Assembly: GCA_014728035.1 (NCBI GenBank)
Contig: WJMJ01000142.1
Span: 1-37,042 of the forward strand
Source of the DNA: Promethearchaeota archaeon
GTDB taxonomy: Archaea > Asgardarchaeota > Thorarchaeia > Thorarchaeales > Thorarchaeaceae
Length of the DNA stretch: 37,042 nucleotides
Reading direction: 5' to 3'
In this document: positions 1,959-23,514 of the stretch, in pieces
Numbering within the stretch: the first letter of the stretch is position 1
How the letters are laid out: each line of letters opens with the position of its first letter
Notes under the pieces: generated by a model
What the model was told of the DNA's origin: nothing
Seen by the model: the letters and a program-made list of their open reading frames with translations, nothing else
Database searches by the model: none
Position numbers and translations under genes: made by a program

Positions 1959-2813
1959 TCATGTATGCTTGATGAATGTCCCTTCTCTATATTCTCGAAA
2001 GGCAGTCTGCAATTCTTTCTCTGTATTCATGACAATAGGACCTTGCCAAGCAATTGGTTCTCCTAAAGGCATAGCAGAAACCAAGACAAACCGCAAGGAT
2101 GAATCTTCTGCGCGAATGGTGACATATGAACCGGATTTGTAAAGAACCAATGATTGAGATTCAATAGGCATATCGTTGTCAGATGAAAAAGTTCCTGAGC
2201 CTTCCATGATATACGCAAACACTTTGTGTAAAGGATTCGTAGAATGAGTTATTTCACAACCTTCGGGAAGGAATATGTCAAGGTATTCAGGCTCGGTCTT
2301 GATCCCACGTATTGGACCTCTAACACCATTTACACTACCAGCAATAATCTTGATCCTAGCTCCTTCAGAAGTTGTGACCTCGGGAAATTCTGATGCCTTG
2401 TATCCACGATATTTTGGAGGGGTCATCTTTTCTTTTGCAGGAAGGTTCAACCACAACTGCAAACCCCGAACAGTTCCTGTGTCAGATTCAGGCATTTCTT
2501 CATGTATTATTCCGCTACCAGCAGTCATCCATTGAATTGCACCTGGTTCGATGACACCTTTTCCTCCAGTACTGTCACGATGTCTAGCTTTTCCCTCAAA
2601 CATGTAGGTAATCGTTTCAATACCTCGATGGGGGTGCCAAGGAAATCCCTTCTCAAATTCAGAAGGTTTTTCCGAACCAAATTCATCCAGTAGAAGAAAT
2701 GGGTCCATCAGTTTTGTATCTGCAAACCCAAATACTCTTGCTATTTTAACTCCGGCGCCTTCAAGAGCTGTTCGGGGTTTCTTAATTGATTGAATCGACC
2801 TCTCTTCTCGCAT
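1959..2813 (-). CDS. Pirin family (bicupin) protein
   Basis: DPFLLLDEF, GFPWHPHRGIETITY, QWMTAGSGIIHEE, LQLWLNLP and GPIVMNT motifs; likely start ATG 2813 rather than 2930. Confidence 0.93.
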   Translation of the reverse strand: MREERSIQSIKKPRTALEGAGVKIARVFGFADTKLMDPFLLLDEFGSEKPSEFEKGFPWHPHRGIETITYMFEGKARHRDSTGGKGVIEPGAIQWMTAGSGIIHEEMPESDTGTVRGLQLWLNLPAKEKMTPPKYRGYKASEFPEVTTSEGARIKIIAGSVNGVRGPIRGIKTEPEYLDIFLPEGCEITHSTNPLHKVFAYIMEGSGTFSSDNDMPIESQSLVLYKSGSYVTIRAEDSSLRFVLVSAMPLGEPIAWQGPIVMNTEKELQTAFREYREGTFIKHT

Positions 2814-2825
2814 CAACACACCAAG

Positions 2826-2839
2826 TAAACTATTGTTAA
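2826..2839. promoter_or_regulatory. TWAAC-N4-GTTWA palindrome upstream of pirin
   Basis: TAAACTATTGTTAA, between TATA-like TTTATCAA (minus, 2851-2844) and the pirin ATG. Confidence 0.45.
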
Positions 2840-2943
2840 ATTGTTGATAAAGAATAGGATATAGCATTTTTTCAACTCGAATAGCCAATTTTGAATGCTT
2901 GAACAAATATAAAACAACCAAGTCCCACATTTAGACGAGAAAA

Positions 2944-3243
2944 ATGAGACGACGACGACGAGGGCGCAGAGGCAGACTACCGATCCAACCAAAAATTCGT
3001 GAAGAACCTGAAACAAAGAAGCTGGTACCAGAACCAATACAAGATGAAACTGTAATCCTTCTTGAAGCTGCAGAATTCGAGGCTATGAGGTTGGTCGATT
3101 TTGAAGGGATGTATCAAGAAGAAGCTGGAGGCCAAATGGGTGTTTCAAGGGGGACAATTTGGCGTCTGCTTCAGAGTGGTAGAATAAAGGTCATTAAATC
3201 AATACTAGAAGGAAGACCGTTATTACTCAAAAGTGACGAATAG
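2944..3243 (+). CDS. DUF134 (UPF0251) HTH DNA-binding protein
   Basis: EFEAMRLVDFEGMYQEEAGGQMGVSRGTIWRLLQSGRIKV...LEG matches the DUF134 signature. Confidence 0.9.
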   Translation: MRRRRRGRRGRLPIQPKIREEPETKKLVPEPIQDETVILLEAAEFEAMRLVDFEGMYQEEAGGQMGVSRGTIWRLLQSGRIKVIKSILEGRPLLLKSDE

Positions 3244-3296
3244 AAGTTGCAATTTGATTAAATCAATATTTGCGAGGACTTATTAGTAAGGGTAAC

Positions 3297-3326
3297 TACA
3301 CTATAGTTGATTTACTCGATAGTTTA
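3297..3326. promoter_or_regulatory. Tandem degenerate TWAAC-N4-GTTWA sites upstream of the DPS-like gene
   Basis: TACACTATAGTTGA (3297-3310) and TACTCGATAGTTTA (3313-3326), downstream of TTATTAGT (3280-3287). Confidence 0.35.
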
Positions 3327-3379
3327 CTTTTATTTTGTTAACAAAGGAGTATCTGGAAAAGTGAATCACTTAGGAAAGA

Positions 3380-3883
3380 ATGAATATGGGAAAACGAGGA
3401 AGAGAAATCGTTAAACTTGATCTAGAAGGACTACTTGAACAACTCAACAAAGCATTTGCTGACGAATGGCTAGCTTACTATCAATATTGGATTGGAGCTA
3501 AAGTTGCGGTCGGACCTATGCGTGGAGCAGTTGTTGCAGAATTAATGGAACATGCTCTTGATGAACTTAGACATGCTGATATGTTGATTGAAAGGATCAT
3601 TCAACTGGGTGGAACACCTATTCTCAAACCAGAGGATTGGTATGAACACACCAATTGTGGATATGCTGAACCTAGCAAACCATCTGTCAAAGAATTGCTA
3701 AATCAGAACATAGAAGCAGAACAATGCGCTATTGATGTTTACACGAAGATACTGGAACTTACCAAGGACAAAGATCCAATAACATACAACCTAGCATTAG
3801 AAATTCTTGCTGATGAGGTTGAACATGAGGAGGATCTGCAAGCTTTGGTCGAAGACATGATGATTGCTAAAGATCTATTTTAA
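3380..3883 (+). CDS. DPS-like (DPSL/thioferritin) ferritin-superfamily protein
   Basis: ADEWLAYYQYW, DELRHA, EAEQCAIDVY, DPIT and DEVEHEED diiron motifs; Cys pair (HTNCGY, EQCAI) typical of DPSL. Confidence 0.88.
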   Translation: MNMGKRGREIVKLDLEGLLEQLNKAFADEWLAYYQYWIGAKVAVGPMRGAVVAELMEHALDELRHADMLIERIIQLGGTPILKPEDWYEHTNCGYAEPSKPSVKELLNQNIEAEQCAIDVYTKILELTKDKDPITYNLALEILADEVEHEEDLQALVEDMMIAKDLF

Positions 3884-3897
3884 AATTAGCAATATAT

Positions 3898-3947
3898 TCA
3901 CGAGGCAAAGTTGTCTCGTGATTTCTTTTATTCTTTCTTGGTTTTTT
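3898..3947 (+). terminator. Hairpin plus U-tract terminator
   Basis: TCACGAGGCA-AAGT-TGTCTCGTGA (one G.U on +) then TTTCTTTTATTCTTTCTT. Confidence 0.75.
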
Positions 3948-3965
3948 ACACTGCTTTTCACAATC

Positions 3966-4424
3966 TTATTCGAACGGTGTTTCGGGCTCGTCTATTGAAA
4001 ATGCATAAAGGATAACCAGAATCACTATTAACATAGTGGGAAGTGGCCAGAACAGATTATAGGCTGGAGAACCTATTATACTAGCAGCACCAATACCAGT
4101 CAACACTATAGGACCAAATTCCAAAACAGAAGTTAGAATTAGAGTATAGTTTTTACTAATCAGTTCTTTAAAATAAGCAATAACGGTTACTAACAAAATA
4201 ATTCTCAGAATAAGGAAAGGAGTTCCAAGGATGATTTGACTTATGTCAAGGATTTGGAAACCTGAGAAATAGAAGGAGTGAATATATTCCCAAAACAAAG
4301 CACGAATGTGAAGATTACTGCTTCCCAACCCAATGCTTTGAATAATCACATATGGCGCTATGAGAATAGTAACCAGTAGTATCACAAGTATTTTTGTTAA
4401 TCTTGAAATCCCTTCGAACACCAA
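3966..4424 (-). CDS. Hypothetical membrane protein (about 4 TM)
   Basis: 152-aa hydrophobic ORF with acidic tail (DEPETPFE) and SD-like GGATGTG before TTG. Confidence 0.6.
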   Translation of the reverse strand: MVFEGISRLTKILVILLVTILIAPYVIIQSIGLGSSNLHIRALFWEYIHSFYFSGFQILDISQIILGTPFLILRIILLVTVIAYFKELISKNYTLILTSVLEFGPIVLTGIGAASIIGSPAYNLFWPLPTMLIVILVILYAFSIDEPETPFE

Positions 4425-4500
4425 AATTACACATCCTTAATGAATAGTCCTACTTTCAAAGATTAAGGATTCTGATGTAAGCAAAGATGGACTTGACTCT

Positions 4501-4533
4501 AAAAAGAAAACAGAGTCAGAGTTAATCCGACTC
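4501..4533 (-). terminator. Hairpin plus U-tract terminator of the Cys-rich microprotein
   Basis: Minus strand GAGTCGGA-TTAAC-TCTGACTC then TGTTTTCTTTTT; the G.U wobble works only on the minus strand. Confidence 0.7.
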
Positions 4534-4544
4534 AGTAATAGACA

Positions 4545-4709
4545 TTATTTCTTAAGTTTTAGAGAATCTCCACAGCAGCTAAATGAACAACCGCATGAGT
4601 CCTCGTCATTACAGCACTCAGTGCACTCAGATACAATCTTTATCTCCAAGCCACAATCACTACAATGGTATATCTGTCCTTTTTTCATATCATGACAATG
4701 TAATCCCAT
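4545..4709 (-). CDS. 54-aa Cys-rich metal-binding microprotein (desulforedoxin/metallothionein-like); absent from the ORF track
   Basis: Hand translation MGLHCHDMKKGQIYHCSDCGLEIKIVSECTECCNDEDSCGCSFSCCGDSLKLKK; 10 Cys and 3 His; SD GGATGTGTGA; own terminator. Confidence 0.85.
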   Translation of the reverse strand: MGLHCHDMKKGQIYHCSDCGLEIKIVSECTECCNDEDSCGCSFSCCGDSLKLKK

Positions 4710-4769
4710 AATCACACATCCATTGGCAAATGTTAGGATTTGGAGTATATTAATTCTATTTTAGCTACG

Positions 4770-4801
4770 AAAAAAGAGATAATGGAGCTCAGAGGAGCTC
4801 C
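4770..4801 (-). terminator. Hairpin plus U-tract terminator
   Basis: Minus strand GGAGCTC-CTCT-GAGCTCC then ATTATCTCTTTTTT, just after the stop at 4812. Confidence 0.65.
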
Positions 4802-4811
4802 TTAGTATTTT

Positions 4812-5275
4812 CTATTTACGTTTCTTTACAGCAATCAATATGACTATGACAAGTACGCCACCAATAATGAGATACCAAATATCTATTCCAGCCACATTGT
4901 CAGGTAATCCAAGAACATCAGGCAATGGAAGATTCGGAAGAAGTCCTCCATATGGAATGGTTGTCTTTGTAGTATCCATAGAAGAGGGAACCTCAATAGT
5001 GATGTTCTCTACATTGCTCCAAGTACTATATGCTTGATAGATATTAAAAGACCGAACTCTGAAATGGTATGTACCATTTGTCAGGGGTTCTTCCAGTGTC
5101 AAGGATGAAGTGTTCCAAGTATCCAACGTATTCAAGATAAGAAAGTAGCCAATAAATATAGAGAAGACACACGTAGCTCTAGAGCTTTCTTTATGACTAG
5201 TGTATTATTAATAATGAACGGTAAACACCATAGAATGCTGATTCCAATTAGAATGACAAGTTCTAGAGTCTGCAT
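4812..5275 (-). pseudogene. Remnant of a fibronectin-III-containing membrane-anchored surface protein
   Basis: 4812-5135 holds only the last FN3 strands (LTNGTYHFRVRSFNIYQAYSTWS) plus TM and KKRK tail. An out-of-frame 47-aa hydrophobic ORF (5275-5132, MQTLELVILIGISILWCLP) with SD lies upstream. Confidence 0.55.
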
Positions 5276-5329
5276 ATACAATCACACTTCTTCATAATCA
5301 TCAAATTTGCTTGGAAGTACTATTCTTTG

Positions 5330-5572
5330 TTAGAATGGATATCGATCGTCATGCCAGGAAGGAGCACGTGGTTTACACACACCTAGTAGAAGCCCAATAG
5401 CGCCCAGAACTCCAACAACAAGAATAAGCATAGCTATACTTCCAAAGAATGGTATAAATATTTCTGAGAATCCGTCCGTCGAATTAATGAAGAAAAAAGC
5501 TATTACAGCAATTCCCAAAAAACAGAAAGCACTGCAGCATCGTGAAATTCTAGAGGATTTCATCTTCGGCAT
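5330..5572 (-). CDS. Small 2-TM membrane protein (likely paralog of 6203-6454)
   Basis: Basic N-terminus MPKMKSSRISRCC, two TM segments, SD GATGAT. Confidence 0.65.
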   Translation of the reverse strand: MPKMKSSRISRCCSAFCFLGIAVIAFFFINSTDGFSEIFIPFFGSIAMLILVVGVLGAIGLLLGVCKPRAPSWHDDRYPF

Positions 5573-5765
5573 GGTATATCATCATTCTGCTGCTCAAAGT
5601 TTCATGTTGATATGCCTACTGAATATGTTTCATATGTTTCAAAAAAGTAGGTAAAAATTGAGCAATCAACCATTTACAATCAATGAATCTCATGCGATTT
5701 ATTCTAACCAACTTGTTCCAATTGCAAAAGTGAACACCCCATCACAGCTGGGATAGGTAATCAGT

Positions 5766-6185
5766 ATGATGAAGTATTTCGAAAAAATGGGACATGCAGA
5801 AAAACGAAATTATACAATAATTATAGTCGGAGCAATAATTCTTGGATTCTTCGAGTTCTTTGTGTTTCCAAATCCCCCTCCATTTTGGTGGAGTGTTGTA
5901 CTCCTTGCTAGTGCACTTTTACTAATGCTATTACTATGGCGAACAATCAAAATGAGCGATAAAAAGAAGAAGCCTAAGAAAAAATCCCATAAGTCAAGAA
6001 GAAAGAAAACAGATAAGACAAAGTTATACCTGAATATCGCCCGTGTGGTCTTTCTCGTTTCAGCAGCGTTTCTCATTTATGAAGGGCTTCTTGGTATTGG
6101 TGGTCTGTTCACTTTCTACGGAGGTATCGCATGTATTGGGATTACTGCGATTATCTCAGTTATTCTCTACATGAAATATGATTGA
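5766..6185 (+). CDS. Hypothetical 4-TM membrane protein with Lys-rich loop
   Basis: Two TM pairs separated by KKKKPKKKSHKSRRKK. Confidence 0.65.
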   Translation: MMKYFEKMGHAEKRNYTIIIVGAIILGFFEFFVFPNPPPFWWSVVLLASALLLMLLLWRTIKMSDKKKKPKKKSHKSRRKKTDKTKLYLNIARVVFLVSAAFLIYEGLLGIGGLFTFYGGIACIGITAIISVILYMKYD

Positions 6186-6202
6186 CATAGAGATGATGAA
6201 AC

Positions 6203-6454
6203 ATGCCGAAGAAACAAAAGATGTCCAGAAGTGTTAGGTGCGGCTATGGTTTGTGTCTGCTGATATTTGCAGCATTTGCAGGATTTCTTGGATTGAATGC
6301 TCTGAGTCAAAGTGAATCAATGAGAATCCCAGAGATATTCGCATATGTTCCATTCATCTTTGCAGCGATTGCATTCTCCATGGCAATATGTGTATTAGCT
6401 GGAAAATATAATCCTTCTAAAAGTAGATACGGAATAGTACCTGTGTATAGATAG
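6203..6454 (+). CDS. Small 2-TM membrane protein (likely paralog of 5330-5572)
   Basis: MPKKQKMSRSVRCGYGLCLL, two TM segments, SD GAGATGATGA. Confidence 0.65.
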   Translation: MPKKQKMSRSVRCGYGLCLLIFAAFAGFLGLNALSQSESMRIPEIFAYVPFIFAAIAFSMAICVLAGKYNPSKSRYGIVPVYR

Positions 6455-6464
6455 TTTGGAAACA

Positions 6465-8072
6465 TCAATCACTAGCAGGAATAGAAATCAAAAATGATGT
6501 TCCTTCAGTAGATGACAGTAGCTCAATTGAGCCATTACAAGCTTGAAGTATTTGACGTGAAAGATAAAGTCCCATACCAGAACTGCCGCGTGTACTATAT
6601 TGCTTCTCAAAAATATTTGGTCTTATAGATTCTGGTATTCCAGGTCCATTATCGGAAAATCTAACTTGGATAGCAGATTTCACACGTTCCATTACAATAT
6701 CTACTTTAGCGTCAGAACCGACATGTTGTATCACATTTCTAAATAAATTTTCAAAGACCATTGCCAACATGGATCCACAGTGACCACATACTCCTTCATC
6801 ATCTAATACATTGAATGTGATTTTGAGATTTTCATGACTTCTCCGCACCTCATGAATTACTAATTGCAAAACTTCAACAAGACACCTACTTTGTGATTCG
6901 TTCTCGTATGAAAACACGTTTAGTACGCGACCCATTCTGAACATGATACTTTTGATAGCTTCTAGAGATTTCCCATCTCTTTCTCTTATTTCTTCTAAAT
7001 CCAATTGGAGATTCTCAATTGATAGAATAGCATGTTGTATGTCATTGGATAGATCGTGTTGAAGAAGATAAGTGTATAATTCCAATTCTCTTCTTGTTGC
7101 ATCACGTTCTTGTTCAATTCTTTTCCGTTGTGTTACATCAGATAAAACCAATTGGTGAACTAACTCCCCAGAATAAGATATGATATTGGTATGTATGGAT
7201 ATCCATTTAGTTTCTGAATCTGATAGCAATCGCACTTCACAGTGTTGATCTACGTTAGTAATTGTAGAGTCAATTGTATGTGTAACCATAGAACGGTCAT
7301 CTTGATGAAATAACCCGAGAAACTTGGAAAATTCTATTGGAAATTCAGTCCAATCAACATGCAACATCTTAATTGCAGTGGAGTTCGAATAAAAGATATC
7401 ATTATCTTGTAGAATGATAATACCAAGTAGAGATTGTTCAGCCAAAGCTCGATATTTCTTTTCTCTTATCTCTAATCGGTTTGCTTGATTCAAGATTTTT
7501 TGATAAGCCGCATATCTGATTCGTACACCAATGAACGCCAAAGTGCTACATGAGAATGAAACTCCAGAAGCTGCGAGAGCTGGAACCACTAATTCGAATG
7601 GTAGAATTTGCAAGAGTAATACCAGAGTAGCAAATTGGAAAACTAACAGTAGTAAAGTGAAGCGTGGGGATGTCGTTATGCTTGCTAATATTATTGCAAT
7701 TGTACCGAAAATAATTGCTAACACAATTCTATAGGCAGTAGGAGGCCAAGGAAAATACATCAGATAAAACAGGGGAAGTAGAAGTAGAGTCCCTGACAGA
7801 ATCAGTGATCCAAATTCAAAGAAACGGGTTCTTGATAATATATACGACAGAGAGAAAAGTGATAAGATAAACGGAACATCCCAAGCTTCTTGAACTGCAA
7901 GAGTAATATTTGCTAAAAACCTGATAGCGTAGATTGTCAATAGGAGAATAACAAGTGTAGAAAGAAGCCTTGCTTCATCTTTCTTAACCTCACTCAGTTT
8001 TTCACTTGGCTCAACAAGAGTATCCCATAATGATTTTCCCAAGTAACGAATTCTATGAAACCCGTTGCTCAT
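6465..8072 (-). CDS. Membrane-bound PAS sensor histidine kinase
   Basis: N-terminal TMs, PAS (KYRALAE...DVTQRK), H-box QHDLSN, N-box ENLFRNVIQH, DNGPGIP, GMGLY. Confidence 0.9.
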   Translation of the reverse strand: MSNGFHRIRYLGKSLWDTLVEPSEKLSEVKKDEARLLSTLVILLLTIYAIRFLANITLAVQEAWDVPFILSLFSLSYILSRTRFFEFGSLILSGTLLLLPLFYLMYFPWPPTAYRIVLAIIFGTIAIILASITTSPRFTLLLLVFQFATLVLLLQILPFELVVPALAASGVSFSCSTLAFIGVRIRYAAYQKILNQANRLEIREKKYRALAEQSLLGIIILQDNDIFYSNSTAIKMLHVDWTEFPIEFSKFLGLFHQDDRSMVTHTIDSTITNVDQHCEVRLLSDSETKWISIHTNIISYSGELVHQLVLSDVTQRKRIEQERDATRRELELYTYLLQHDLSNDIQHAILSIENLQLDLEEIRERDGKSLEAIKSIMFRMGRVLNVFSYENESQSRCLVEVLQLVIHEVRRSHENLKITFNVLDDEGVCGHCGSMLAMVFENLFRNVIQHVGSDAKVDIVMERVKSAIQVRFSDNGPGIPESIRPNIFEKQYSTRGSSGMGLYLSRQILQACNGSIELLSSTEGTSFLISIPASD

Positions 8073-8264
8073 CTAACAATCCACCTTCAAACTTGCAGTT
8101 GTAGGTCCCAAATACAACAAACGATTATGTCAAACATTACTTGTTCTTGAAGATGTAATATAGATGTATTGCGTGTAGTGATTTGATAAGGTTCCATTCT
8201 TCAAAATGAAAAATCAGAAGTCCGTCTAAAATATTTAATCGGTTTCTATGGAAATTGCATAGGC

Positions 8265-8303
8265 TTTATAAGGCGACTTATATACTAGAGGTTTAGTATA
8301 TAA
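8265..8303. promoter_or_regulatory. tbp promoter: TATA-like box plus an inverted pair of TATA-like boxes
   Basis: TTTATAAG (8265-8272) and perfect inverted repeat TTATATACTA-GAGGTT-TAGTATATAA (8278-8303). Confidence 0.55.
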
Positions 8304-8322
8304 AGGGAGAGAGGAACCCAAT

Positions 8323-8901
8323 ATGCCCCGACCGAAGCCAAAAACCAAGATTGAAAACGTAGTAGCATCGGTCATTCTCAACCAGAGATTAGACCTGGAT
8401 GAGATTGCTGCAACTATGCCAAACGTAGAATTCGACCCAGAACAATTTCCCGGTCTTGTGTACCGATTGAAAAAACCAAAGACTGCCACGTTGATATTCA
8501 ACAGTGGAAAGATGGTATGTACAGGTGCAAAGAGCGAGAAAGAGGCAAAACGTGCAGTCCATAAGATCGTCAAAAATATTCGTGAAGCAGGTATCGAAAT
8601 TTCTGGCAAGCCAATTATTGTTGTTCAGAATATAGTTGCAAGTGCAAGTCTTGGAGCTGAACTGAACTTAGAATTAGCTGCTATGACCCTTGATAACACC
8701 CTTTACGAACCAGAGCAATTCCCAGGTCTTATTTACAGAATGAGAGACCCCAAAGTGGTCATTCTGCTCTTTGGTTCAGGAAAGCTCGTTATCACTGGAG
8801 CAAAGTTTGAACCACAAATCGATGAAGCTGCAGAGAAAGTAATGGACAGATTACTAGAATTAGATGTCATGCGAATACCTGAAGGCGAAGATTGGGACTA
8901 A
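8323..8901 (+). CDS. tbp: TATA-box-binding protein
   Basis: Two repeats IENVVAS...PEQFPGLVYR...LIFNSGKMVCTGAK and VQNIVAS...YEPEQFPGLIYR...LFGSGKLVITGAK; acidic tail. Confidence 0.98.
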   Translation: MPRPKPKTKIENVVASVILNQRLDLDEIAATMPNVEFDPEQFPGLVYRLKKPKTATLIFNSGKMVCTGAKSEKEAKRAVHKIVKNIREAGIEISGKPIIVVQNIVASASLGAELNLELAAMTLDNTLYEPEQFPGLIYRMRDPKVVILLFGSGKLVITGAKFEPQIDEAAEKVMDRLLELDVMRIPEGEDWD

Positions 8902-8919
8902 AACTAAAATTGAGGAATC

Positions 8920-8955
8920 AAGGGAGTAGCTAACTCCCTTTTTCCATTATTTTTC
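8920..8955 (+). terminator. Hairpin plus U-tract terminator of tbp
   Basis: AAGGGAGT-AGCTA-ACTCCCTT then TTTCCATTATTTTTC. Confidence 0.7.
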
Positions 8956-8973
8956 AAATAGTAGTTTCTTCAA

Positions 8974-10140
8974 CTAGAAGAATGAAAATCCTAATGGTGG
9001 AATTGATAAGATCAGGATAACCATTGCGAGAATGAATACTAATTTTCGACTGTTCGAAATTGGAATTGTGTCATTCAATGGACCAGGGTGTTCTCCACCT
9101 CTGCTTAATAAGAACACTAGAATTGCCATCAAGAAGAAACCAAGGAGAAACATAATTGCAATAGCTGCGTATCCGATGTATTTGTGTTGATCAGAGTCTA
9201 CAACAGCTCTTAATGCATGACCTCCATCAAGTTGACTTGCAGGGAAGAGATTCAATGCAGTGATAAGGCAACCAACCCAACCAGCAAAAGCTACTGGATG
9301 AAGATAGACCGTACCACCTGCAGGAATAACATCCTGAAACATCATCTCAAGCATTACAAAAATGAAAGGTACTGGAAGAGATCCGGTCATATTTGGGAAC
9401 GCCTCCTCTATTGCAGTCAACTGCTCACCAGTAACAGGTACAGACATAAAAAAGCCAGAAAATAACACAACCAAGGTGATTGCAAATCCTGCAAGTGGTC
9501 CCGCCACTCCAAGGTCATAGAGGTCTCGAAGGGTCTTTGGTGGACTCTTTTGCTGAATAAAAGCTCCAAAAGTCCCACCTAATTCAGGTAGTCCTGGTAT
9601 GAAATATGGCAAAGTAGCTTCTATTCCCCTATTCTGTGCGGTTAGATAATGGCCCATTTCATGTGTAAATATGATTCCCATGATTGATGCCATGAATATG
9701 ATGGTAGTAAAGAGAACATCAAACATACTCCATCCACTAGGATAGAATAAAGTAAGAAATACAGGACTTGTTGCTTGGAGAAATCCACCAATTGCCATCG
9801 TAGCTAAGGTTGCAACGAAGAGAATATAGTTTGTAGAAGGGTCACTCTTCTCTTGTGTTTCTATAGGCACAAAACGGATATAGTACTCACCTTCATCCTT
9901 GTTTCTCCATCGAACCAATGCCCAAGAATGTAGTTTTTCAGCCCTATACTCTAGTTCATCAAAGACTTCTTGCTGACGGCCTCGAGAAGGAATTTGACCT
10001 TCTTTCCAACGAACTATGAATGTGGGCATTCCATGCTCTAACACATTATGGAGGATTTCAAACCATTGGGTTAGAATATTACTTAGCTCGGTGAAGGTTG
10101 GATAACTAATAACTCTTCGATCATAGTTGTCTAGTGACAA
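8974..10140 (-). CDS. Site-2 protease (M50 intramembrane metalloprotease)
   Basis: HEMGH zinc motif, AGPLAG, LNLFPASQLDGGH; likely TTG start at 10140 behind GGAGG. Confidence 0.92.
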   Translation of the reverse strand: MSLDNYDRRVISYPTFTELSNILTQWFEILHNVLEHGMPTFIVRWKEGQIPSRGRQQEVFDELEYRAEKLHSWALVRWRNKDEGEYYIRFVPIETQEKSDPSTNYILFVATLATMAIGGFLQATSPVFLTLFYPSGWSMFDVLFTTIIFMASIMGIIFTHEMGHYLTAQNRGIEATLPYFIPGLPELGGTFGAFIQQKSPPKTLRDLYDLGVAGPLAGFAITLVVLFSGFFMSVPVTGEQLTAIEEAFPNMTGSLPVPFIFVMLEMMFQDVIPAGGTVYLHPVAFAGWVGCLITALNLFPASQLDGGHALRAVVDSDQHKYIGYAAIAIMFLLGFFLMAILVFLLSRGGEHPGPLNDTIPISNSRKLVFILAMVILILSIPPLGFSFF

Positions 10141-10359
10141 ATCCTTGTTCCTCCAAGTATTATTCAGCCTTTGATTTAACTTCATTTAAGGCTATAGCCA
10201 AAGGCATTCTTGCTAACTATTAATGTAGAATGTCTAAATGTCGTATTTCAGTTGCATATATGTCGAAGCGCAATCAGCAAGTACAATAAGCATTCAAGAC
10301 ATAGTTGAAACGAGGAGTAGAAGAGGTAAAGCACATCGATAACAATCCTTGACATATCC

Positions 10360-11655: not shown

Positions 11656-11657
11656 AA

Positions 11658-12938: not shown

Positions 12939-12963
12939 ATATTGGTTTTTTGATATACCATCC

Positions 12964-14874: not shown

Positions 14875-14970
14875 ATTAGTTGCACTCCATTAAAAGAATA
14901 ATGTTGATTTCAACTCATATAGTTGCTTGTTATCTATAACGTAAAAGTAACCATAAGATGTATATACCAT

Positions 14971-14986
14971 ATTAACAATGGTTAAT
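14971..14986. promoter_or_regulatory. TWAAC-N4-GTTWA palindrome at the PCD-ferredoxin start
   Basis: ATTAACAATGGTTAAT, between TATATA (14961-14966) and ATG 14988. Confidence 0.5.
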
Positions 14987-14987
14987 T

Positions 14988-15347
14988 ATGACTACTCGTG
15001 ATGACCTTGTATCTAAGACATGCATTCCATGTAAAGGGGATATACCTCCACTAAAAGATTGGAAAATATCAGAAATGATGAATATTGTTACTGGATGGAA
15101 ACTGATAACTAGTGGACCAGATAAAATTGAAAAATCTTACAAATTTGAAGATTTCAAGGAATCAATGAAATTTGTAAATGAAGTAGCTGAGCTAGCAGAA
15201 AAAGAAGGACACCATCCAGACATCTCAATCCATTGGAATAAAGTAACTTTGACCTTGTGGACTCATGCAATAGACGGTCTGCATGAAAACGATTTCATCA
15301 TGGCGGCAAAGATTGATGACCTGCTCGATGACGAATCTAGCGAATAA
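14988..15347 (+). CDS. phhB: Pterin-4-alpha-carbinolamine dehydratase
   Basis: AEKEGHHPDI...WTH...GLHENDFIMAAKID; N-terminal CIPC. Confidence 0.93.
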   Translation: MTTRDDLVSKTCIPCKGDIPPLKDWKISEMMNIVTGWKLITSGPDKIEKSYKFEDFKESMKFVNEVAELAEKEGHHPDISIHWNKVTLTLWTHAIDGLHENDFIMAAKIDDLLDDESSE

Positions 15348-15382
15348 GTTGAAATAAAAGTGACGAATTCTCAACAATTCAC

Positions 15383-16198
15383 ATGGGATCACCATTTTGG
15401 TTCGTTCAAATAATTTTGAAGACATTCAGACAAGTAATTAATATCGCGAAACTCACTAATGCTCCATTAATCGGGAGGATTATTGACTACGCATTATTTG
15501 AAGGAGACGATATTACATATCTCCCAAAGGATGTATTAATACCAATCAATACGCAACTAGATCTACCTCAGAGTGAAGTAGTTCCATCGCAAATCCTTGA
15601 AGCATTTCTTGACAAAGCTGAATATATTTTCCTCATGAATTTTTGTCCTTGTAGAACTTCAAAGGATTGTGATGAACATCCACAAGATCTAGGATGTATT
15701 TTTATGGGAAAAGCAGCCGCAGACATTAATCCTCAGTTGGGACGGCTAGTTTCTGCTGAAACTGCCAAAAAACATCTCAAGAAATGTCGGGATGCGGGTC
15801 TAGTGCATATGATTGGAAGGCAGAAATTGGATGCAGTTTGGTTGAATGTTGGACCAATTGAAAACCTCCTAAGTATCTGCAATTGTTGTGCATGCTGTTG
15901 CCTTTGGCGAGTTATACCACACATACACCCAAAGATATCAAAGAAAATCAAAAGGATTGGGGGTCTTACAATAGAAATCACAGATGACTGTATAGGTTGC
16001 AGAGCTTGTATTGAAGCAGGTTGTTTTGCAGATGCTATCCGAATAATCGATGGAAAAGTAGTTATCACGGATGAATGTAGGGGTTGTGGTAGGTGTGTTG
16101 AAATTTGTCCTCAATCAGCAATTAAGTTGAGATTTGATGAATCTGATTATATTCAGAAAACTATTGCAAAAATCGATTTGATAGTTGACATAGATTAG
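15383..16198 (+). CDS. Multi-Cys 4Fe-4S ferredoxin-domain protein
   Basis: CPCRTSKDC, ICNCCACCC, CIGCRAC and CRGCGRCVEICP motifs. Confidence 0.85.
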   Translation: MGSPFWFVQIILKTFRQVINIAKLTNAPLIGRIIDYALFEGDDITYLPKDVLIPINTQLDLPQSEVVPSQILEAFLDKAEYIFLMNFCPCRTSKDCDEHPQDLGCIFMGKAAADINPQLGRLVSAETAKKHLKKCRDAGLVHMIGRQKLDAVWLNVGPIENLLSICNCCACCCLWRVIPHIHPKISKKIKRIGGLTIEITDDCIGCRACIEAGCFADAIRIIDGKVVITDECRGCGRCVEICPQSAIKLRFDESDYIQKTIAKIDLIVDID

Positions 16199-16283
16199 TT
16201 CCTGATTCAAGAGTAAGTGAAATATAGCTCTATTGTAATAAGATATACAGTTATCATTTGGATTGCGACAAGAAAGATAGGAT

Positions 16284-17159
16284 ATGGCAAATATGACTTC
16301 GACTTCAAATAGAATCAAAACCAGTTTTCAGGTTTGGAAAGATAATTTTCTAAAATTTGTCCTTGCTGAAATCTCCATGGCTATAATTATTGGCATTGTA
16401 TTCACAGCATTCAGTATGGTAGTGGCAATTGGGATAGTTATAATCAACCCAGCAATATCATTGTTAGACGCATTCTTGAACTATCTTACTTCATGGTGGC
16501 CAATACTCACACAAGGAGATATCACTTTACTTTTGCCAAGCTTAATCATAGCTATTATCATACCATTGTATGCAATTGGGGTTTGGTTTGTATTTCCAGT
16601 TTACGGATTGGTCAAGTCGATTCTTTTTGATGAAAGTGATTTTCCCAAGAAACCTTTGGAATGGCTTAAGCAGGGAAAAGAAAAATACTTGATAACAGGA
16701 GTTATTCTTTCATTATTATCTTTGGCACCAGGAAGCATCACTGTGATTCTCTTAACCGAGCTATTTGGATACCCTGTGGGATACCCACTTGATTGGATTA
16801 TTGGGTTTATTGGTATTGGTATCTTTTTCGTTATGATGGGACTATTGATGATGTATGTTCCTAGTGTAATTTCTGGAAAAGGTCCGATTTCTGGTCTGAA
16901 AAACTCCATTAGACTCGTTATACAGAATGTCAAAGATGTGTTCTCTATGTGGATATTCTATCTCTTTATGCTAATAATCTGGTTTATCCCTATAGTGATT
17001 CACGCATTCATATTTGGATTCTCAGTACCAGGAACAGATCCATTTCAGAGTTTTCTTGTTGCAATAGCAGGACTCGGAGCATTTCTGGATGGATTTGTAG
17101 TTCTCCCAATGATGATTGTGGGAATGTCCCATCTCTATGATGAAATTCAAACAAAATAA
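16284..17159 (+). CDS. Hypothetical multi-pass membrane protein
   Basis: About 6 TM; GPISGLKNSIRLV loop; ends SHLYDE. Confidence 0.7.
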   Translation: MANMTSTSNRIKTSFQVWKDNFLKFVLAEISMAIIIGIVFTAFSMVVAIGIVIINPAISLLDAFLNYLTSWWPILTQGDITLLLPSLIIAIIIPLYAIGVWFVFPVYGLVKSILFDESDFPKKPLEWLKQGKEKYLITGVILSLLSLAPGSITVILLTELFGYPVGYPLDWIIGFIGIGIFFVMMGLLMMYVPSVISGKGPISGLKNSIRLVIQNVKDVFSMWIFYLFMLIIWFIPIVIHAFIFGFSVPGTDPFQSFLVAIAGLGAFLDGFVVLPMMIVGMSHLYDEIQTK

Positions 17160-17191
17160 GAAGAAAATGGTGGAGAAGAACTCTCCACCGT
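17150..17191 (-). terminator. Hairpin plus U-tract terminator of the lactate permease
   Basis: Minus strand GGTGGAGA-GTTCT-TCTCCACC then ATTTTCTTCTTATTTTG. Confidence 0.7.
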
Positions 17192-17196
17192 CATTG

Positions 17197-18789
17197 CTAA
17201 AGAAAAGCCCATATCATCGTCATTATTGCCACCGCAGCAGTCATGATAACAGCTACTACTGCACCATATCTAATGACCTCTCCTTCAATACCAATCTCAT
17301 CAATTACAGCTGCTGCATTTTGTATTTTTGCTGGACTGAGTACACTAGCGAGACCCCCACCGATTCCGTTTGATGCTGAAACTACAACAGGATTTGCTCC
17401 AATCAGAGAACTCGTGGTATAGTGATAATCAGTAAACATTGCAATCGCAGAAGTTTCAGAACCTGAGATGAATCCTCCAAGCAGGCCTAGAAATGCAGCT
17501 GTGAGAGGGTATGCAATCCCGATAGTGCTTGAAGTTGCAGTAGCCAGAACGTAAATCATATTATTGGAATTTTCAACCAATGTCCAAACTCCACCAACCC
17601 AAACATATCCACTTTTGACCATCACTTCAGCCATCGCGAAAAAGATTGCAGCTGCTAAAACTGGTCTTGGAGCACGAGACATGAATTTTTTGAAAGTCCT
17701 GCTTAGAACCTCTTTATCAGTTTTGAAAAATGGCATTGCGACTAATGTGGATATCAGCATCAATGTATATGCCTGCCAGAAGAATCTTGTTGGAATGGCA
17801 GCGGTTCCAGGAATAGCTATTGGTAATGCGAGATCAACGAATAGAAAATCTCGAATGGGTATAATGATATTCGTAGCCAAACAAAGGATTACTAGTATCA
17901 CCCAAGGAATACTCGCGCGTTTAAGGTCCATGTTTCTTTCGACTTCCAAATCTTTCTCGTCCAAAATGCTTCTATCAATGAACGAACGTTTTCGTACACG
18001 AGTATAGACGAATAAAATGCCCATCACCGCAGCTCCAGCAAATACATTGGTAAGTGTGGTCAGATTAACAAATTGAAGATTCATGACTATTGCAATACCC
18101 CCAGCTGTAACACCACAAATCAATGCTAGAAGAAGACCTTCTCTGTCTTTGAGCATTTCCTTTCCACCAGCTATCCAAAGCATAGAGATAGCAATACCGG
18201 TTGTAATAACTGGCATGTACATTGCAAACACACTCCCGGCCTCCCAAAGTGCAATATTCGTTCCAGCAGAAGCATTGAAGACATCTGTGAAAACCACAGC
18301 TGGTACACCTAATAGTGCAAATGTTGTTAGAGGGTCATAACCGATTGAGGGGAGTGCTACAGCAACTAAGGGATTGAATCCTAGCGCGAGCATAACTGGT
18401 GGTAACATAGAGACCGGAGTTGCCCCAATCCCTACCAAGAACAGACCAAGACCCAGGCTGATTAGCATTATTTGCATTGGTCTGCTTCCACCACCAAGCG
18501 TTTTGAAGAATACAATCAAACGTTGCAAAGCTCCTGTTTCTTGCATCCAAGTAATCATAAGAATTGAGGTTGCCACCATTAATGAAATTGGAAAGGATCG
18601 TACGATACCTGCAAAACTTGCTAGTAGTGCGATTCCAGGATCAGTCTGAAAAGCTATGATAGCTATTAGCAGTGTCACAAACCATACAACTACACCTGTA
18701 GTGTCAGCTGCTTTCTTCAAGAATACAAGCATTATGAATGCCAAGATAATGGGCAAAATAATGAGCAATAATGCAATTGTTGGTTCCAT
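17197..18789 (-). CDS. lctP: L-lactate/glycolate permease (LctP family)
   Basis: 530-aa polytopic protein; GLLGGFISGSETSAIAMF, SPAKIQNAAA, EGEVIR motifs. Confidence 0.8.
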   Translation of the reverse strand: MEPTIALLLIILPIILAFIMLVFLKKAADTTGVVVWFVTLLIAIIAFQTDPGIALLASFAGIVRSFPISLMVATSILMITWMQETGALQRLIVFFKTLGGGSRPMQIMLISLGLGLFLVGIGATPVSMLPPVMLALGFNPLVAVALPSIGYDPLTTFALLGVPAVVFTDVFNASAGTNIALWEAGSVFAMYMPVITTGIAISMLWIAGGKEMLKDREGLLLALICGVTAGGIAIVMNLQFVNLTTLTNVFAGAAVMGILFVYTRVRKRSFIDRSILDEKDLEVERNMDLKRASIPWVILVILCLATNIIIPIRDFLFVDLALPIAIPGTAAIPTRFFWQAYTLMLISTLVAMPFFKTDKEVLSRTFKKFMSRAPRPVLAAAIFFAMAEVMVKSGYVWVGGVWTLVENSNNMIYVLATATSSTIGIAYPLTAAFLGLLGGFISGSETSAIAMFTDYHYTTSSLIGANPVVVSASNGIGGGLASVLSPAKIQNAAAVIDEIGIEGEVIRYGAVVAVIMTAAVAIMTMIWAFL

Positions 18790-18791
18790 GG

Positions 18792-19787
18792 TTAGTTCCT
18801 CCGTTCAAGATAATCGTGTTCGTAGTACCAATCTATCGCTCGTTTCAAACCGTCCTGCATTGAAAATTTAGGAGTCCAACCTAAGAGCCTTTTTGCGCGA
18901 TTATTCTCATACCACCGGTCTTCATCCATACTTTGGATTGTTTTTGTATGCCATAGAAAGGTATTCCTTCCCCGGTTTTTGATAGGACTTAGTAAGCCAA
19001 TCCCGATCTTTGCGAGTGAAGTAGGTATTCGTCTTTTTGGTGGTTCCACATTGAGGTAATTTGTTAAGAATTCAATCAGTTCATTGTATGTCATTGGCTC
19101 ATCAGGACATAGAATAATTGTACTATTTAATGCAGATTGAGAAGACAATGCAGCAGTAAAACCCCTTACAATGTCATCTACGTATGAATACATGATGTGT
19201 TTCTTACCATCTCCTGGCAATACCGGAATCTCACCATCGTTGAGTGCTTTGATAAGCTCATAAGCAGTATAGAGGTCTCCTTCTCCCATCACACCTGTAG
19301 GTCTTAGTATAACGTGATTTAGGCCAGTGTCAGAGGAAATTTCTCGTACTACTTTTTCTGCTAATACTTTACTCTCGCCATAGTCGAATTGGGGTCGAAG
19401 CTCGGTGTCCTCATTTGCAGGAGGATAACGTACTGGACCTATGGTTTCGGTTGTCGAACAATAAACAAATCGTTCAACTGAAGAGCCAATACAAGCATTC
19501 ATCAGGTTCTTTGTGCCTTCAACATTGACTTTGTAAAGAAGATCAACATTCTTTGGATAAAAATCAAAATATGCTGCGAGATGAATGACTGCATCCATTC
19601 CCTCAATTGCATTCTCCAAAGACTCAAAATTCAAGAGGTCTCCTTCTTTAAAAATCACTGTTTCAGGTAATCCACTTCTATTACTTGTAGAACGTACAAA
19701 AGCATGAACCTTGTGTTCTTCTTCGGTCAATTTTTCTATTAGCCGTCGACCTATGAAACCAGTTCCGCCAGTCACTAGGACTTTCAC
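18792..19787 (-). CDS. NAD-dependent epimerase/dehydratase (extended SDR, 3-beta-HSD/DFR-like)
   Basis: VTGGTGFIG, IHLAA, VNVEGT, YGESK (YxxxK); GTG start at 19787 after AAGGTGAG. Confidence 0.88.
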   Translation of the reverse strand: MKVLVTGGTGFIGRRLIEKLTEEEHKVHAFVRSTSNRSGLPETVIFKEGDLLNFESLENAIEGMDAVIHLAAYFDFYPKNVDLLYKVNVEGTKNLMNACIGSSVERFVYCSTTETIGPVRYPPANEDTELRPQFDYGESKVLAEKVVREISSDTGLNHVILRPTGVMGEGDLYTAYELIKALNDGEIPVLPGDGKKHIMYSYVDDIVRGFTAALSSQSALNSTIILCPDEPMTYNELIEFLTNYLNVEPPKRRIPTSLAKIGIGLLSPIKNRGRNTFLWHTKTIQSMDEDRWYENNRAKRLLGWTPKFSMQDGLKRAIDWYYEHDYLERRN

Positions 19788-19981
19788 TGAACTCACCTTG
19801 ATTGTTGTTCGTTTGTTCAAGCATTTATCTCTTACCAATTTCCAAACAGTCAATTTACAATGTAAAATGCAATGGGCGAAAGGTCTAAAGGTAGGATTGA
19901 ATATGAAAACCACAAAGAACAATACATGAATTTTCATCAAATCTGACTTAGCTTAATGTATTCAATTCAAGGGGATCTTCA

Positions 19982-20896
19982 ATGCAGAGCCAAGATAGCG
20001 AAACTAACGGTGATGAAAGCAGCACCGGTAACATAAGACTTGATCCGGATATCGAATCCATTCTATCTGAAGTACAAGGCGACATAAGTGCAGCGTTCAT
20101 TGGAATGGATCTAGAAAGTTTGGACCCAGAAATAGCAAAAAGAACTGTTAATGAGTTATACGATGCAATTGCAAAACTTGAAGAAGGTCTTGAAGTAGAA
20201 GATAGGAGAACTTTGGAATCGGAACTGGAACATCCTATTACAGAAATCAGACCAGAAGAAACTGAACCAATAGAAGAAATCCATACTCCCGATGAGTGGC
20301 TCTCCATAGCTGAGAAACATCTTGTGCAGAGCGAATGGCAAGAAGCAAAACAAGCATTCGAAAAATATCTAGAAAGCGAAGAAGAAGACGAAGAAGCATG
20401 GATAAAATTGGGTCATACTTTGTTGCATCTTAGAGATATTTCTGGTTCAGCAAAAGCATTTTATCAGGCAACAAGAATTGATTATGATTCAAAAGATGGC
20501 TGGTTTAACCTTGGCAAAGTACTGCTGAAGATGAATCGTTTCGAAGATGCTAGTAAGGCATTATTTAGAGCTAGCAAGATTGACCCATCGGATTATCAGA
20601 TATGGATTGAACTAGGAACTGCATTTCTGAAAGAAGAAAGATATACTGATGCGGCTAGAGTGATGAGAGAAGCAGTAAAACTTAACCCCGACTCGGTTGA
20701 AGCTCTCCTAGGAATGGCAATTGCTCTCCAGCGAGCTGGGAACACAAGAGATGCTGCAAGCACCTATGAACGTATTGTATTGATTGATCCAATGCAACCA
20801 ATCGCATGGCAAGAATTGAGTCTATTATACGAGAAACAAGGGAAAACAAGAGAAGCAGAATGGGCAAGAGGAAAACTGAGGGCGATTCGGAAATAA
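19982..20896 (+). CDS. TPR protein with acidic N-terminus
   Basis: About 5-6 TPR units after an approximately 100-aa acidic region. Confidence 0.85.
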   Translation: MQSQDSETNGDESSTGNIRLDPDIESILSEVQGDISAAFIGMDLESLDPEIAKRTVNELYDAIAKLEEGLEVEDRRTLESELEHPITEIRPEETEPIEEIHTPDEWLSIAEKHLVQSEWQEAKQAFEKYLESEEEDEEAWIKLGHTLLHLRDISGSAKAFYQATRIDYDSKDGWFNLGKVLLKMNRFEDASKALFRASKIDPSDYQIWIELGTAFLKEERYTDAARVMREAVKLNPDSVEALLGMAIALQRAGNTRDAASTYERIVLIDPMQPIAWQELSLLYEKQGKTREAEWARGKLRAIRK

Positions 20897-20897
20897 T

Positions 20898-21626
20898 CTA
20901 TTCAAGTGCACTATCCAATTTTGGCAACATGACTCCAGAAGGCCCTGAGATATGAACGTCAGCATGTTGTGTAAGGGGAGTCTGTTCTATATTCATCTCT
21001 ATTATCTTTCCACCATGTTGTTTTACAATCAGTGGAAAAGAAGCAGCTGGCTGGATAAGTGCAGATGTCCCTACTACAATAATACAATCAGCATTATCCA
21101 ATTCAAGATATACGGAACGCATGATTTCTTGATCTAAAGACTCGCCAAACCATACAACGTCAGGTCTTAGATATGATTCACATTTTGGACAGATAGGAAT
21201 ACCATCTGCTGGTTCGGACAAACGTGAGCGATACGCACATTTCGTACACTTAACAGCCCATAGATTGCCATGTACTTCAAGTACGTTTTCTGAATTAGCT
21301 CTTCTGTGAAGACCGTCAACATTTTGTGTGATGACAGTTCTGAGGAAACCCTGCTTCTCCCATTTGGATAATACATCATGACCCGGATTCGGATCACAAT
21401 TACCTATAAGACCTTGTCTCCATGTATACCATTCCCAGACTAATTTCGGATTTTCTGCAAATGCCTGAGGTGTAGCTAAAACCATGGGATTGTAATTTCG
21501 CCACAACCCATTTTCACCTCTAAAAGTTGGAACATCCGACTCTTTGGAAATACCTGCTCCTGTTAACGCAACTAGATATTCTGTCCTTCTAATTATCTCT
21601 GCAGCTTCTTCTATCCTCTCATTCAT
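20898..21626 (-). CDS. cobB: NAD-dependent protein deacylase, class III sirtuin
   Basis: GAGISKES...TFRG, WEWYTWR (YxxR succinyl pocket), TQNVDGLH, HG, two CxxC, RPDVVWFGE, GTS; start ATG 21626. Confidence 0.93.
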   Translation of the reverse strand: MNERIEEAAEIIRRTEYLVALTGAGISKESDVPTFRGENGLWRNYNPMVLATPQAFAENPKLVWEWYTWRQGLIGNCDPNPGHDVLSKWEKQGFLRTVITQNVDGLHRRANSENVLEVHGNLWAVKCTKCAYRSRLSEPADGIPICPKCESYLRPDVVWFGESLDQEIMRSVYLELDNADCIIVVGTSALIQPAASFPLIVKQHGGKIIEMNIEQTPLTQHADVHISGPSGVMLPKLDSALE

Positions 21627-21749
21627 TGTGATACAACTTGTATTAGCAACAGCAGCTTTTAATAACCGTTGGCACTCGCATTTTCTTGCCAAAGGCAATC
21701 AAAATTAACTATGTCGAAGGCAGTATCCTTATATGTTGTAATGAAGTGG

Positions 21750-21763
21750 TAAACAATAGTGAA
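21750..21763. promoter_or_regulatory. TWAAC-N4-GTTWA-like site in the HTH-iscS-iscU promoter
   Basis: TAAACAATAGTGAA, about 16 nt downstream of TTATAT (21729-21734). Confidence 0.4.
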
Positions 21764-23451: not shown

Positions 23452-23514
23452 TGATATGCCATCAGAGAAAACAATATACATACAGTGTATGCGAAAAAAG
23501 TAGAGGAATTCCTA

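Follow-up and report, generated by a model that had tools for sequence, protein, structure and literature searches.

What connects the promoters of a pirin, a Dps-like ferritin-fold protein (DPSL), a pterin-4a-carbinolamine dehydratase (PCD) and an iron-sulfur (Fe-S) cluster assembly operon on a single contig of a Thorarchaeota genome? The contig, WJMJ01000142.1 of assembly GCA_014728035.1 (Promethearchaeota archaeon, Thorarchaeaceae), was analysed over its entire 37,042 nucleotides (nt), here referred to as the window. A sequence-only reading had noticed five 14-mers upstream of these genes, all resembling one inverted repeat, and had proposed a new archaeal Fe-S regulon governed by the helix-turn-helix (HTH) protein encoded directly before iscS and iscU. 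Following the repeat through the whole genome and its relatives, we find it almost certain that this 14-bp palindrome is a real operator of a conserved regulon. The regulon is a broad one, directed at oxidative, thiol and electrophile stress; both Fe-S assembly systems belong to it, but it is not Fe-S-specific, and the HTH protein (the Cys3-His HTH in the following) is our candidate for the protein that binds its operator.

The genome under study (G000, of which the window is contig C115) comprises 4.33 Mb in 173 contigs at 39.5% GC, with intergenic DNA accounting for 13% of the genome at 37.7% GC. Counts referred to as strictly intergenic were made in 568 kb delimited by a crude open reading frame (ORF) and codon-usage gene model of our own. 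Comparison genomes carry G-numbers, G001 being the sister species and G025 a member of a sister family; all of them are kin rather than independent samples, and only part of each was inspected.

The palindrome and its place in promoters

The operator consensus is the perfect 14-bp palindrome TTAACAATTGTTAA, or TTAAC-WATW-GTTAA in its degenerate form, the spacer being non-random. Six exact copies of TTAACAATTGTTAA are present in G000. Their flanks are unrelated, which rules out a mobile repeat as the origin of the motif, and one pair (C78/C113) reflects a contig-end overlap. The two ends concerned, C78:14894 and C113:13032, are reverse-complement copies of one locus, and the assembly therefore contains some redundancy; its estimated contamination is 8.5%, and it is ~1 Mb larger than the genomes of relatives.

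The looser pattern TWAAC-N4-GTTWA, in which the sequence-only reading had seen a recurrent operator, matches 23 times in the genome, with ~20 of the matches being intergenic and lying 0–45 nt upstream of a start codon. Its strictly intergenic count is 16, compared to 3.4 ± 1.9 in dinucleotide shuffles, and that of TTAACWATWGTTAA is 8, compared to 0.01. When a position weight matrix (PWM) was used instead, 52 strictly intergenic matches scored ≥14 against 3.3 in shuffles (~16-fold), and 40 scored ≥16 against 0.9, with the bins 10–12 and 12–14 being at shuffle level. Counted over the genome, matches of ≥14 comprise 63 in intergenic DNA and 14 in called coding sequences. These PWM enrichments are somewhat circular, because the matrix was trained on G000; the pattern counts are not. 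The proposed recurrence was thus confirmed at a frequency far above chance.

Is the motif kept in relatives? Copies of TTAACWATWGTTAA occur in other genomes of the family (17 in G006, 7 in G021, 6 in G018, 5 in G003, and 4 each in G001 and G015), with the pattern read backwards giving 0–1. Of 15 sites sampled from five relatives, eight precede orthologs of genes that carry a strong site in G000, namely MsrB with its divergent neighbour, a divergent pair of a PEMT-like and an unknown gene (in two further genera), an aldo-keto reductase, a TspO-like gene and a short-chain dehydrogenase/reductase (SDR). In addition, a ferritin-like gene of 159 amino acids (aa), adjacent to a regulator gene that we call HxlR2, keeps its site in 8 of 14 genomes, some of which lack any match to the exact pattern, so that an exact count of zero indicates degenerate sites and not their absence. 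The motif is therefore found before orthologs in several genera, as expected of a conserved regulon, while individual members vary. Conservation upstream of orthologs had been named as a check in the sequence-only reading; it holds for the HTH promoter, MsrB and the ferritin-like gene, and fails for the DPSL promoter outside G001 and for the 14-mer at position 3313.

Within the window, all five 14-mers are found exactly at the positions first reported (Table 1), and there is no other intergenic match with a PWM score ≥8; as operators, however, they are of unequal standing. The sites at 14972 (PCD) and 2826 (pirin) are strong. Orthologs of PCD carry TTATCAATAGTTAA in G001 and TTAACAATAGTAAA in G002, and no site in six other genera; the pirin promoters of relatives contain TTAAACATAGTTAA plus a second site in G001, and TTCACTATTGTGAA in G006. 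Since PWM scores of 10–14 are at background, the sites at 21750 and 3297 cannot rest on their scores alone. The former, which combines a TTAAC-type with a TTCAC-type half-site, we accept despite its moderate score because a site at the same promoter position is kept in ~22 of 24 family genomes, so that a common operator for pirin, PCD and HTH-iscS-iscU stands as proposed. The 3297 site is weaker. It lies in a 22-nt block, TACACTATAGTTGATTTACTCG, that is identical in G001 inside otherwise diverged flanks, and DPSL genes of four other genera (G009, G007, G012 and G002) have no upstream site. DPSL thus appears as a doubtful, genus-specific member of the regulon, for whose site chance similarity is a live option. 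As for 3313, chance similarity is the default reading, and the 14-mer could at most be the degenerate second half of a tandem pair, given that a paired spacing of 16–17 nt occurs elsewhere.

Some promoters, one of them before a TusA gene, carry two operators 14–17 bp apart from start to start; they are found at C95:13241/13258, in the pirin promoter of G001 (L114) and in G018 (L154). Such pairs suggest cooperative binding of two dimers. The 14-mers at 3297 and 3313 have this spacing, the second of them being degenerate.

Where the operators sit bears on what they do. For 48 sites with PWM ≥16, the start codon of the nearest gene follows the end of the site after a median of 13.5 nt, and many of these distances fall within 0–12 nt. 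A TATA-like box ends 3–9 nt upstream of most sites (3–15 nt overall), and the placement just downstream of such a box, as claimed before, is correct for all four credible sites of the window (14972, 21750, 3297 and 2826). Together with short or absent leaders, these positions place the dyad downstream of the TATA box and upstream of the putative transcription start. Archaeal repressors such as MDR1, LrpA, Phr and TrmB block RNA polymerase by occupying the DNA between the TATA box and the start site, and repressor operators in archaea typically lie between, or overlap, these two elements; judged by its distances to TATA boxes and start codons, the palindrome is placed in the same way. By this analogy, the regulator bound to it probably functions as a repressor. 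Separately, a G-rich element, GGGGGGTRCGGGGGGA, lies ~30–45 nt upstream of two TTAAC sites (C49 near 5300 and C91 near 29400).

Table 1. Sites and genes of the window. Positions refer to the window; scores are PWM scores for sites and Pfam E-values for genes.
Feature	Position	Strand	Context	Score or evidence
Strong operator TTAACAATGGTTAA	14972..14985		5 nt after TATA box tatata (14961-14966); 2 nt before PCD start	22.5
Strong operator TAAACTATTGTTAA	2826..2839		12 nt upstream of pirin ATG 2813; 104 nt from divergent DUF134 start; TATA-like tctttatca (2845-2853, minus strand) 5 nt upstream	17.7
Operator TAAACAATAGTGAA	21750..21763		Sir2/HTH divergent promoter; 33 nt before HTH TTG start; TATA box cttatatg (21728-21735) 14 nt before	12.9
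Weak candidate operator TACACTATAGTTGA	3297..3310		10 nt after TATA box cttattag (3279-3286); 69 nt before DPSL start	9.7, background level
Unsupported fifth site TACTCGATAGTTTA	3313..3326			1.3; in G001 only TACTCG kept
Pirin, target	1959..2813	-	Longest ORF extends to 2930	Pirin 1.2e-35, Pirin_C 4e-24
DUF134 HTH protein	2944-3243		Divergent from pirin	Pfam
DPSL	3380..3883	+		Ferritin 6.3e-30
PCD	14988-15347	+	First gene of target operon 14988..16198	Pterin_4a 4.3e-33
4Fe-4S ferredoxin-domain protein	15383-16198	+	3' of PCD in the same operon	Fer4-type domains, 1e-6 to 1e-7
Sir2-family deacylase	20898-21698	-	Divergent from HTH gene	SIR2 1.3e-50
Cys3-His HTH protein, candidate repressor, 148 aa	21797-22243	+		Sigma70_r4_2 alone, sub-threshold at 4.8e-4
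iscS	22243-23451	+		Aminotran_5 1.6e-68
iscU	23485-23886	+		NifU_N 5.6e-45

In the case of pirin, the start at ATG 2813 is likelier than that of the longest ORF, because the Pirin domain begins at residue 61 of the latter and because of the position of the site.

A broad stress regulon

Which genes does the operator serve? The regulon comprises ~50–60 promoters in G000, and its targets were identified by Pfam annotation of ~60 site-proximal genes. Peroxide, oxygen and thiol defence is represented by two AhpC/TSA peroxiredoxin loci, two OsmC proteins, MsrB, a flavodiiron protein, a ferritin, two hemerythrins (one of them a DUF438-hemerythrin-PAS protein), a pyridine-nucleotide disulfide reductase and a thioredoxin-like DUF255 protein, and there are also a DUF1858 protein and an FNR-like reductase; sulfur trafficking is covered by two TusA proteins and one rhodanese, and copper export by two copper P-type ATPases. 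Further targets are DoxD/DoxX, an aldo-keto reductase, two SDRs, an isochorismatase, two TPMT-like methyltransferases, endonuclease V, HtrA, a GNAT protein, a TspO-like protein, an MFS transporter, an NnrU/PEMT-like protein and two MscS channels. Of the five main peroxiredoxin genes, four stand behind sites (scores 8.6–21.4); the single full rubrerythrin gene of G000 is without one.

The second Fe-S assembly system is found on another contig. A site scoring 15.9 lies upstream of an ABC ATPase gene (C103:169605-170378), and sufCB can be placed under this site because the only SufBD gene of the genome follows. The sufC site is kept in G001, weakly in G005, and in the sister family (G025). The sequence-only reading had envisaged an Fe-S regulon made up of four Fe/Fe-S promoters. 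This does not stand: most members are redox-stress genes, and iscSU and sufCB are just two among them.

The candidate repressor and its rivals

What protein recognises the operator? Of 24 family genomes, 23 have the Cys3-His HTH gene, and in G000 its stop codon overlaps the iscS start, a gene layout that implies co-transcription of HTH, iscS and iscU. Its promoters share one architecture in ~22 of the 24 genomes: a TATA element, CTTATTAGG or CTTATATG, is followed after ~10 nt by TT[C/A]AC-WATW-GT[G/T]AA. G000 and G001 have TAAACAATAGTGAA at this place, five genomes (G009, G015, G011, G008 and G023) have TTAAC, ATAAC or TAAAC half-sites, and in the sister family (G025) TTAACAATAGTTAG abuts the HTH homolog. 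Among 49 genes of HxlR, MarR, ArsR, DUF134 and COG2522 type in G000, only this one and DUF134, the latter through the site of pirin, have an upstream site scoring ≥8. A Pfam survey of ~80 annotated site-adjacent genes from G000 and relatives revealed no other regulator with this operator, no obvious regulator was seen among 20 unannotated site-adjacent proteins inspected by eye, and Pfam assigned no regulator family to 10 further ones from relatives. The HTH protein had already been favoured from the window's sequence; as the only regulator gene that keeps the operator type in its own promoter throughout the family, it remains the best candidate.

Relatives of the protein point in a similar direction. 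Paralogs of ~125 aa, with the recognition helix ITQAAISQY (VTEAAVSQY in the protein of the window), have ATAAC-GGC-GTTAT upstream in five of five loci, and a G000 paralog fused to a ThiN-like part (C79:16800-17723, L145) has ATAAC-CGA-GTTGT right after a TATA box. From these upstream dyads, the HTH family seems to recognise xTAAC half-sites, separated by N3 in the paralogs and by N4 here, and the paralogs may well autoregulate through their predicted ATAAC-N3-GTTAT operators.

The divergent partner of the gene deserves mention. Sir2 stands beside the HTH gene in nearly all relatives (L061-L084), and iscS-iscU follow on the 3' side in ~11 of 24. With isc linkage in about half of the relatives and Sir2 as the constant partner, the HTH protein is not simply an isc regulator, and Sir2 may be co-regulated through the shared intergenic operator.

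Several other regulators were considered and rejected. DUF134 orthologs in at least 15 genera have a different conserved double operator, TGTGCATATGCACA. The window retains it as two copies, TGTGCATATGCACG (1878-1891) and TGTGCATATGAACA (1902-1915), upstream of DUF5320 (1580-1861, minus strand). In at least 15 related genera, the same TGTGCA-TA-TGCACA double box lies between DUF5320 and DUF134 and probably serves the DUF134 protein as its own operator; in the genus studied here, pirin is inserted between these two genes. Two HxlR regulators stand beside targets (C78:13873-14223 and C167:24147-24554); their own promoters lack the motif, and their phyletic pattern is uninformative. For the second, HxlR2, orthologs in many genera keep an AGTTAC-N6-GTAAGT box of their own, the nearby TTAAC site belonging to the syntenic ferritin-like gene. 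HxlR2 (L144; orthologs L148-L160) has a conserved N-terminal cysteine (NCPVF) and a C-x9-C-x2-C tail, and may be a second, thiol-based stress regulator. Lastly, an ArsR gene at C5:23128 lies behind TTTACAATTGTTCA, and its orthologs in other genera keep TGAACA-N2-TGTTCA. Its product (C5:23099-23436, L146/L223) is of ArsR/SmtB type and TsoR/BigR-like by NCBIfam; the operator resembles the TTAAC dyad and has a distinct specificity.

To which family does the candidate belong? The Pfam scan detected no Rrf2 domain (PF02082), and NCBIfam yielded neither an Rrf2/IscR model nor a match to SufR (COG2345) at E ≤0.01; Tfx (TIGR00721) reached 17.5 bits against a cut-off of 60.25, and all NCBIfam matches were below cut-off. 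Reciprocal tblastn matches with the paralogs, at 1e-8 to 1e-12, instead place it in an uncurated, COG2522-like family of cysteine-rich HTH proteins that includes ThiR-like fusions. The family is characterised by an N-terminal HTH with the recognition helix T-E/Q-A/P-A-V/I-S/T-Q-Y and a C-terminal Cys/His module. We retrieved 306 homologs, the named ones being labelled (Candidatus) Thorarchaeota transcriptional regulator or hypothetical protein, and there is no Pfam family for them. The C-terminal motif reads C126-x2-H129-...-C140-x2-C143, with all four residues invariant in 27 aligned homologs; a further cysteine, at position 133, gives way to Ser or Ala in four orthologs.

AlphaFold2 predicts an all-helical protein (mean pLDDT 88.9, pTM 0.83). 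Solved relatives were found neither by sequence nor by Foldseek at E ≤0.001, and VIA-align returned generic helical matches with a best Z of 5.9. A two-copy model scores 0.71, compared to 0.00 for the best control; 20 of 30 solved homodimers reach this mark, as does 1 of 23 single chains. Its contacts agree to at least 78% between runs, with a partner pLDDT of at least 80. The predicted interface involves residues 13-26, 102-117 and 134-148 and covers the C-terminal cysteines. The model supports a dimer, as the dyad requires.

Might the HTH protein serve little more than its own operon? According to the strongest alternative, which we regard as unlikely, it binds only TTCAC-WATW-GTGAA, at its own promoter with iscSU and at one or two others, and another regulator, one that does not autoregulate or that belongs to an unscreened family, binds the TTAAC sites. 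The half-sites lend this view some weight: ~90% of regulon half-sites have A at position 3, whereas HTH promoters mostly have TTCAC...GTGAA, on both halves in ~14 of 24 genomes. Exact TTCAC-type sites are rare, at 1–3 per genome, and G006 contains 17 exact TTAAC sites, yet TTCAC at its HTH promoter. Moreover, our upstream-site screen was confined to the five gene types named above, and the approach is blind to a regulator that lacks autoregulation. On the other hand, TTCAC sites beyond the HTH promoter lie before genes like those behind TTAAC sites, namely pirin (G006), ferritin (G004 and G019), peroxiredoxin (G024) and a TspO-like gene; hybrid operators are common, including that at 21750 and the isc promoters of G009, G015, G005 and G020; ~9 of 24 HTH promoters have a TTAAC, TAAAC or ATAAC half-site; and the survey of site-adjacent genes uncovered no other regulator bearing the operator. 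Because hybrids are common and both types of site precede similar genes, our reading is that one dimeric protein accepts either A or C at position 3.

Besides the half-site bias and the blind spot of the approach, further points weigh against a single Cys3-His HTH repressor. Its autoregulatory site in G000, at 12.9, is within the background range. The presence or absence of the gene is uninformative, since 23 of the 24 family genomes have it regardless of how many exact motifs they contain. The regulon is plastic: 3 of 9 genomes keep the PCD site, 2 of 9 that of DPSL and 3–4 of 12 that of suf. Gene calls in G000 come from our own simple ORF model, and the PWM from G000 itself. Finally, zinc is an equally possible cofactor of the Cys3-His site, and four orthologs lack the fourth cysteine. 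With all this taken into account, the comparative assignment still makes the Cys3-His HTH a moderately probable binder of the operator.

Two further explanations dispense with a repressor. Very improbably, the palindrome could be a specialised core-promoter element or an activator site, read by an alternative TFB/TBP or a stress activator: its fixed place in core promoters near the start codon and some TATA-like variants (TTAAATATAGTTAA) would be in line with this, but a 14-bp dyad this strict is what dimeric HTH regulators typically contact, unlike TBP/TFB, most sites are preceded at 3–9 nt by a TATA box of their own, and MDR1, LrpA, Phr and TrmB exemplify how a protein bound at this position blocks polymerase. 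Chance similarity, or a small mobile repeat, is effectively refuted for the strong sites, since the low GC content, the shuffle-level PWM scores of 10–14 and the one perfect pair due to assembly overlap are outweighed by the counts above those of dinucleotide shuffles, the unrelated flanks, the consistent placement before start codons and the occurrence before orthologs in other genera, where the reversed pattern is found 0–1 times.

How, then, might a circuit built on the Cys3-His HTH operate? We infer its binder, its sign and its signal alike. In our model, a holo-repressor dimer would occupy TT[A/C]AC-WATW-GT[T/G]AA between the TATA box and the start and prevent recruitment of RNA polymerase, and through the 21750 site the protein would repress its own gene. 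The Cys3-His site would hold an Fe-S cluster, or a redox-active metal or thiol centre, adjoining the predicted dimer interface. Oxidants or a shortage of Fe-S clusters would damage this centre and cause the protein to leave the DNA, so that defence genes, iscSU/sufCB and the repressor's own gene would be derepressed together. The groups under such control would be peroxide, oxygen and thiol defence, electrophile and quinone defence (pirin, DoxX, aldo-keto reductases and SDRs), copper export, sulfur trafficking and Fe-S assembly. The circuit as a whole, operator plus Cys3-His HTH repressor, we judge to be somewhat favoured by the data; Fe-S or redox sensing by the protein is a tentative proposal.

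Significance and known systems

A search of the available literature did not find the 14-mer, and found COG2522 in one unrelated paper. We speculate that the Cys3-His HTH founds a new family of global repressors that sense through an Fe-S cluster (or a redox metal) and have no relationship to Rrf2, SufR, SoxR and FNR: an independently evolved analogue of IscR in Thorarchaeota and possibly in other Asgard archaea. If true, the closest prokaryotic relatives of eukaryotes would jointly switch on oxygen and oxidant defence and the rebuilding of Fe-S clusters, a familiar regulatory logic executed by an undescribed regulator family in a lineage for which no regulon is known to have been defined. To our knowledge, almost nothing is known of gene regulation in Asgard archaea, and how these mostly anaerobic organisms cope with oxygen is a live question for the origin of eukaryotes. 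The list of sites indicates what Thorarchaeota treat as one stress response, including protein repair, detoxification of peroxide and oxygen, copper export, sulfur trafficking and both routes of Fe-S assembly, and with the operator as a guide, stress regulons can be predicted in further genomes of Thorarchaeota. Both protein and sites are amenable to in vitro work without culturing the organism, and the candidate sensor comes from a family that has neither a Pfam model nor a solved structure.

ThiR-like thiamine regulators may be the only characterised relatives of the protein. HTH-ThiN proteins of this kind have a homologous N-terminal HTH and a cysteine-rich module; the 340-aa proteins of G033 and G036 matched at 1.5e-9 and 1.6e-6. 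In G000, the ThiN-like part of the fusion paralog corresponds to the C-terminal part of NCBIfam PRK08573 (2.3e-18). These paralogs presumably control a thiamine regulon, and may be related to the published ThiR (Rodionov et al. 2017). They and the short PCE-type paralogs differ from the Cys3-His HTH in the N3 rather than N4 spacing of their dyads and in an extra CxxC, and the ThiR-like forms in having an effector domain.

Among archaeal regulators, SurR of Pyrococcus and Thermococcus comes to mind, a redox-switched protein that recognises GTTn3AAC. Like the system proposed here, it is archaeal and cysteine-dependent (putatively so in our case), and acts through a short AAC/GTT-type dyad on a broad redox regulon. 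Unlike the Cys3-His HTH, to which it has no sequence relationship, SurR is an ArsR-like winged-helix protein with an N-terminal CxxC disulfide switch that both activates and represses, and its half-sites are ordered GTT...AAC instead of AAC...GTT. NsrR, RsrR and SufR share the logic we propose, with repression by the holo form and, once the cluster is damaged, derepression of defence and repair genes, and the hemerythrin/DUF438, DUF1858 and NnrU-like targets recall NsrR regulons. Their folds differ, and the HTH protein has no SufR or Rrf2 match in NCBIfam.

A further functional parallel is IscR, the Rrf2-type regulator of Escherichia coli and other bacteria. The HTH protein is of an unrelated family, its 14-bp dyad contrasts with the 25-bp type 1 and type 2 sites of IscR and is set in an archaeal TATA/TFB promoter, its gene is linked to iscSU in about half of the relatives, and its Fe-S cluster is putative. 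Still, IscR likewise heads an iscSU operon, autoregulates, and couples isc/suf assembly with oxidative-stress genes. The cluster ligands of IscR are three cysteines and one histidine, and the invariant C, H, C, C set of the Cys3-His HTH is of the same composition.

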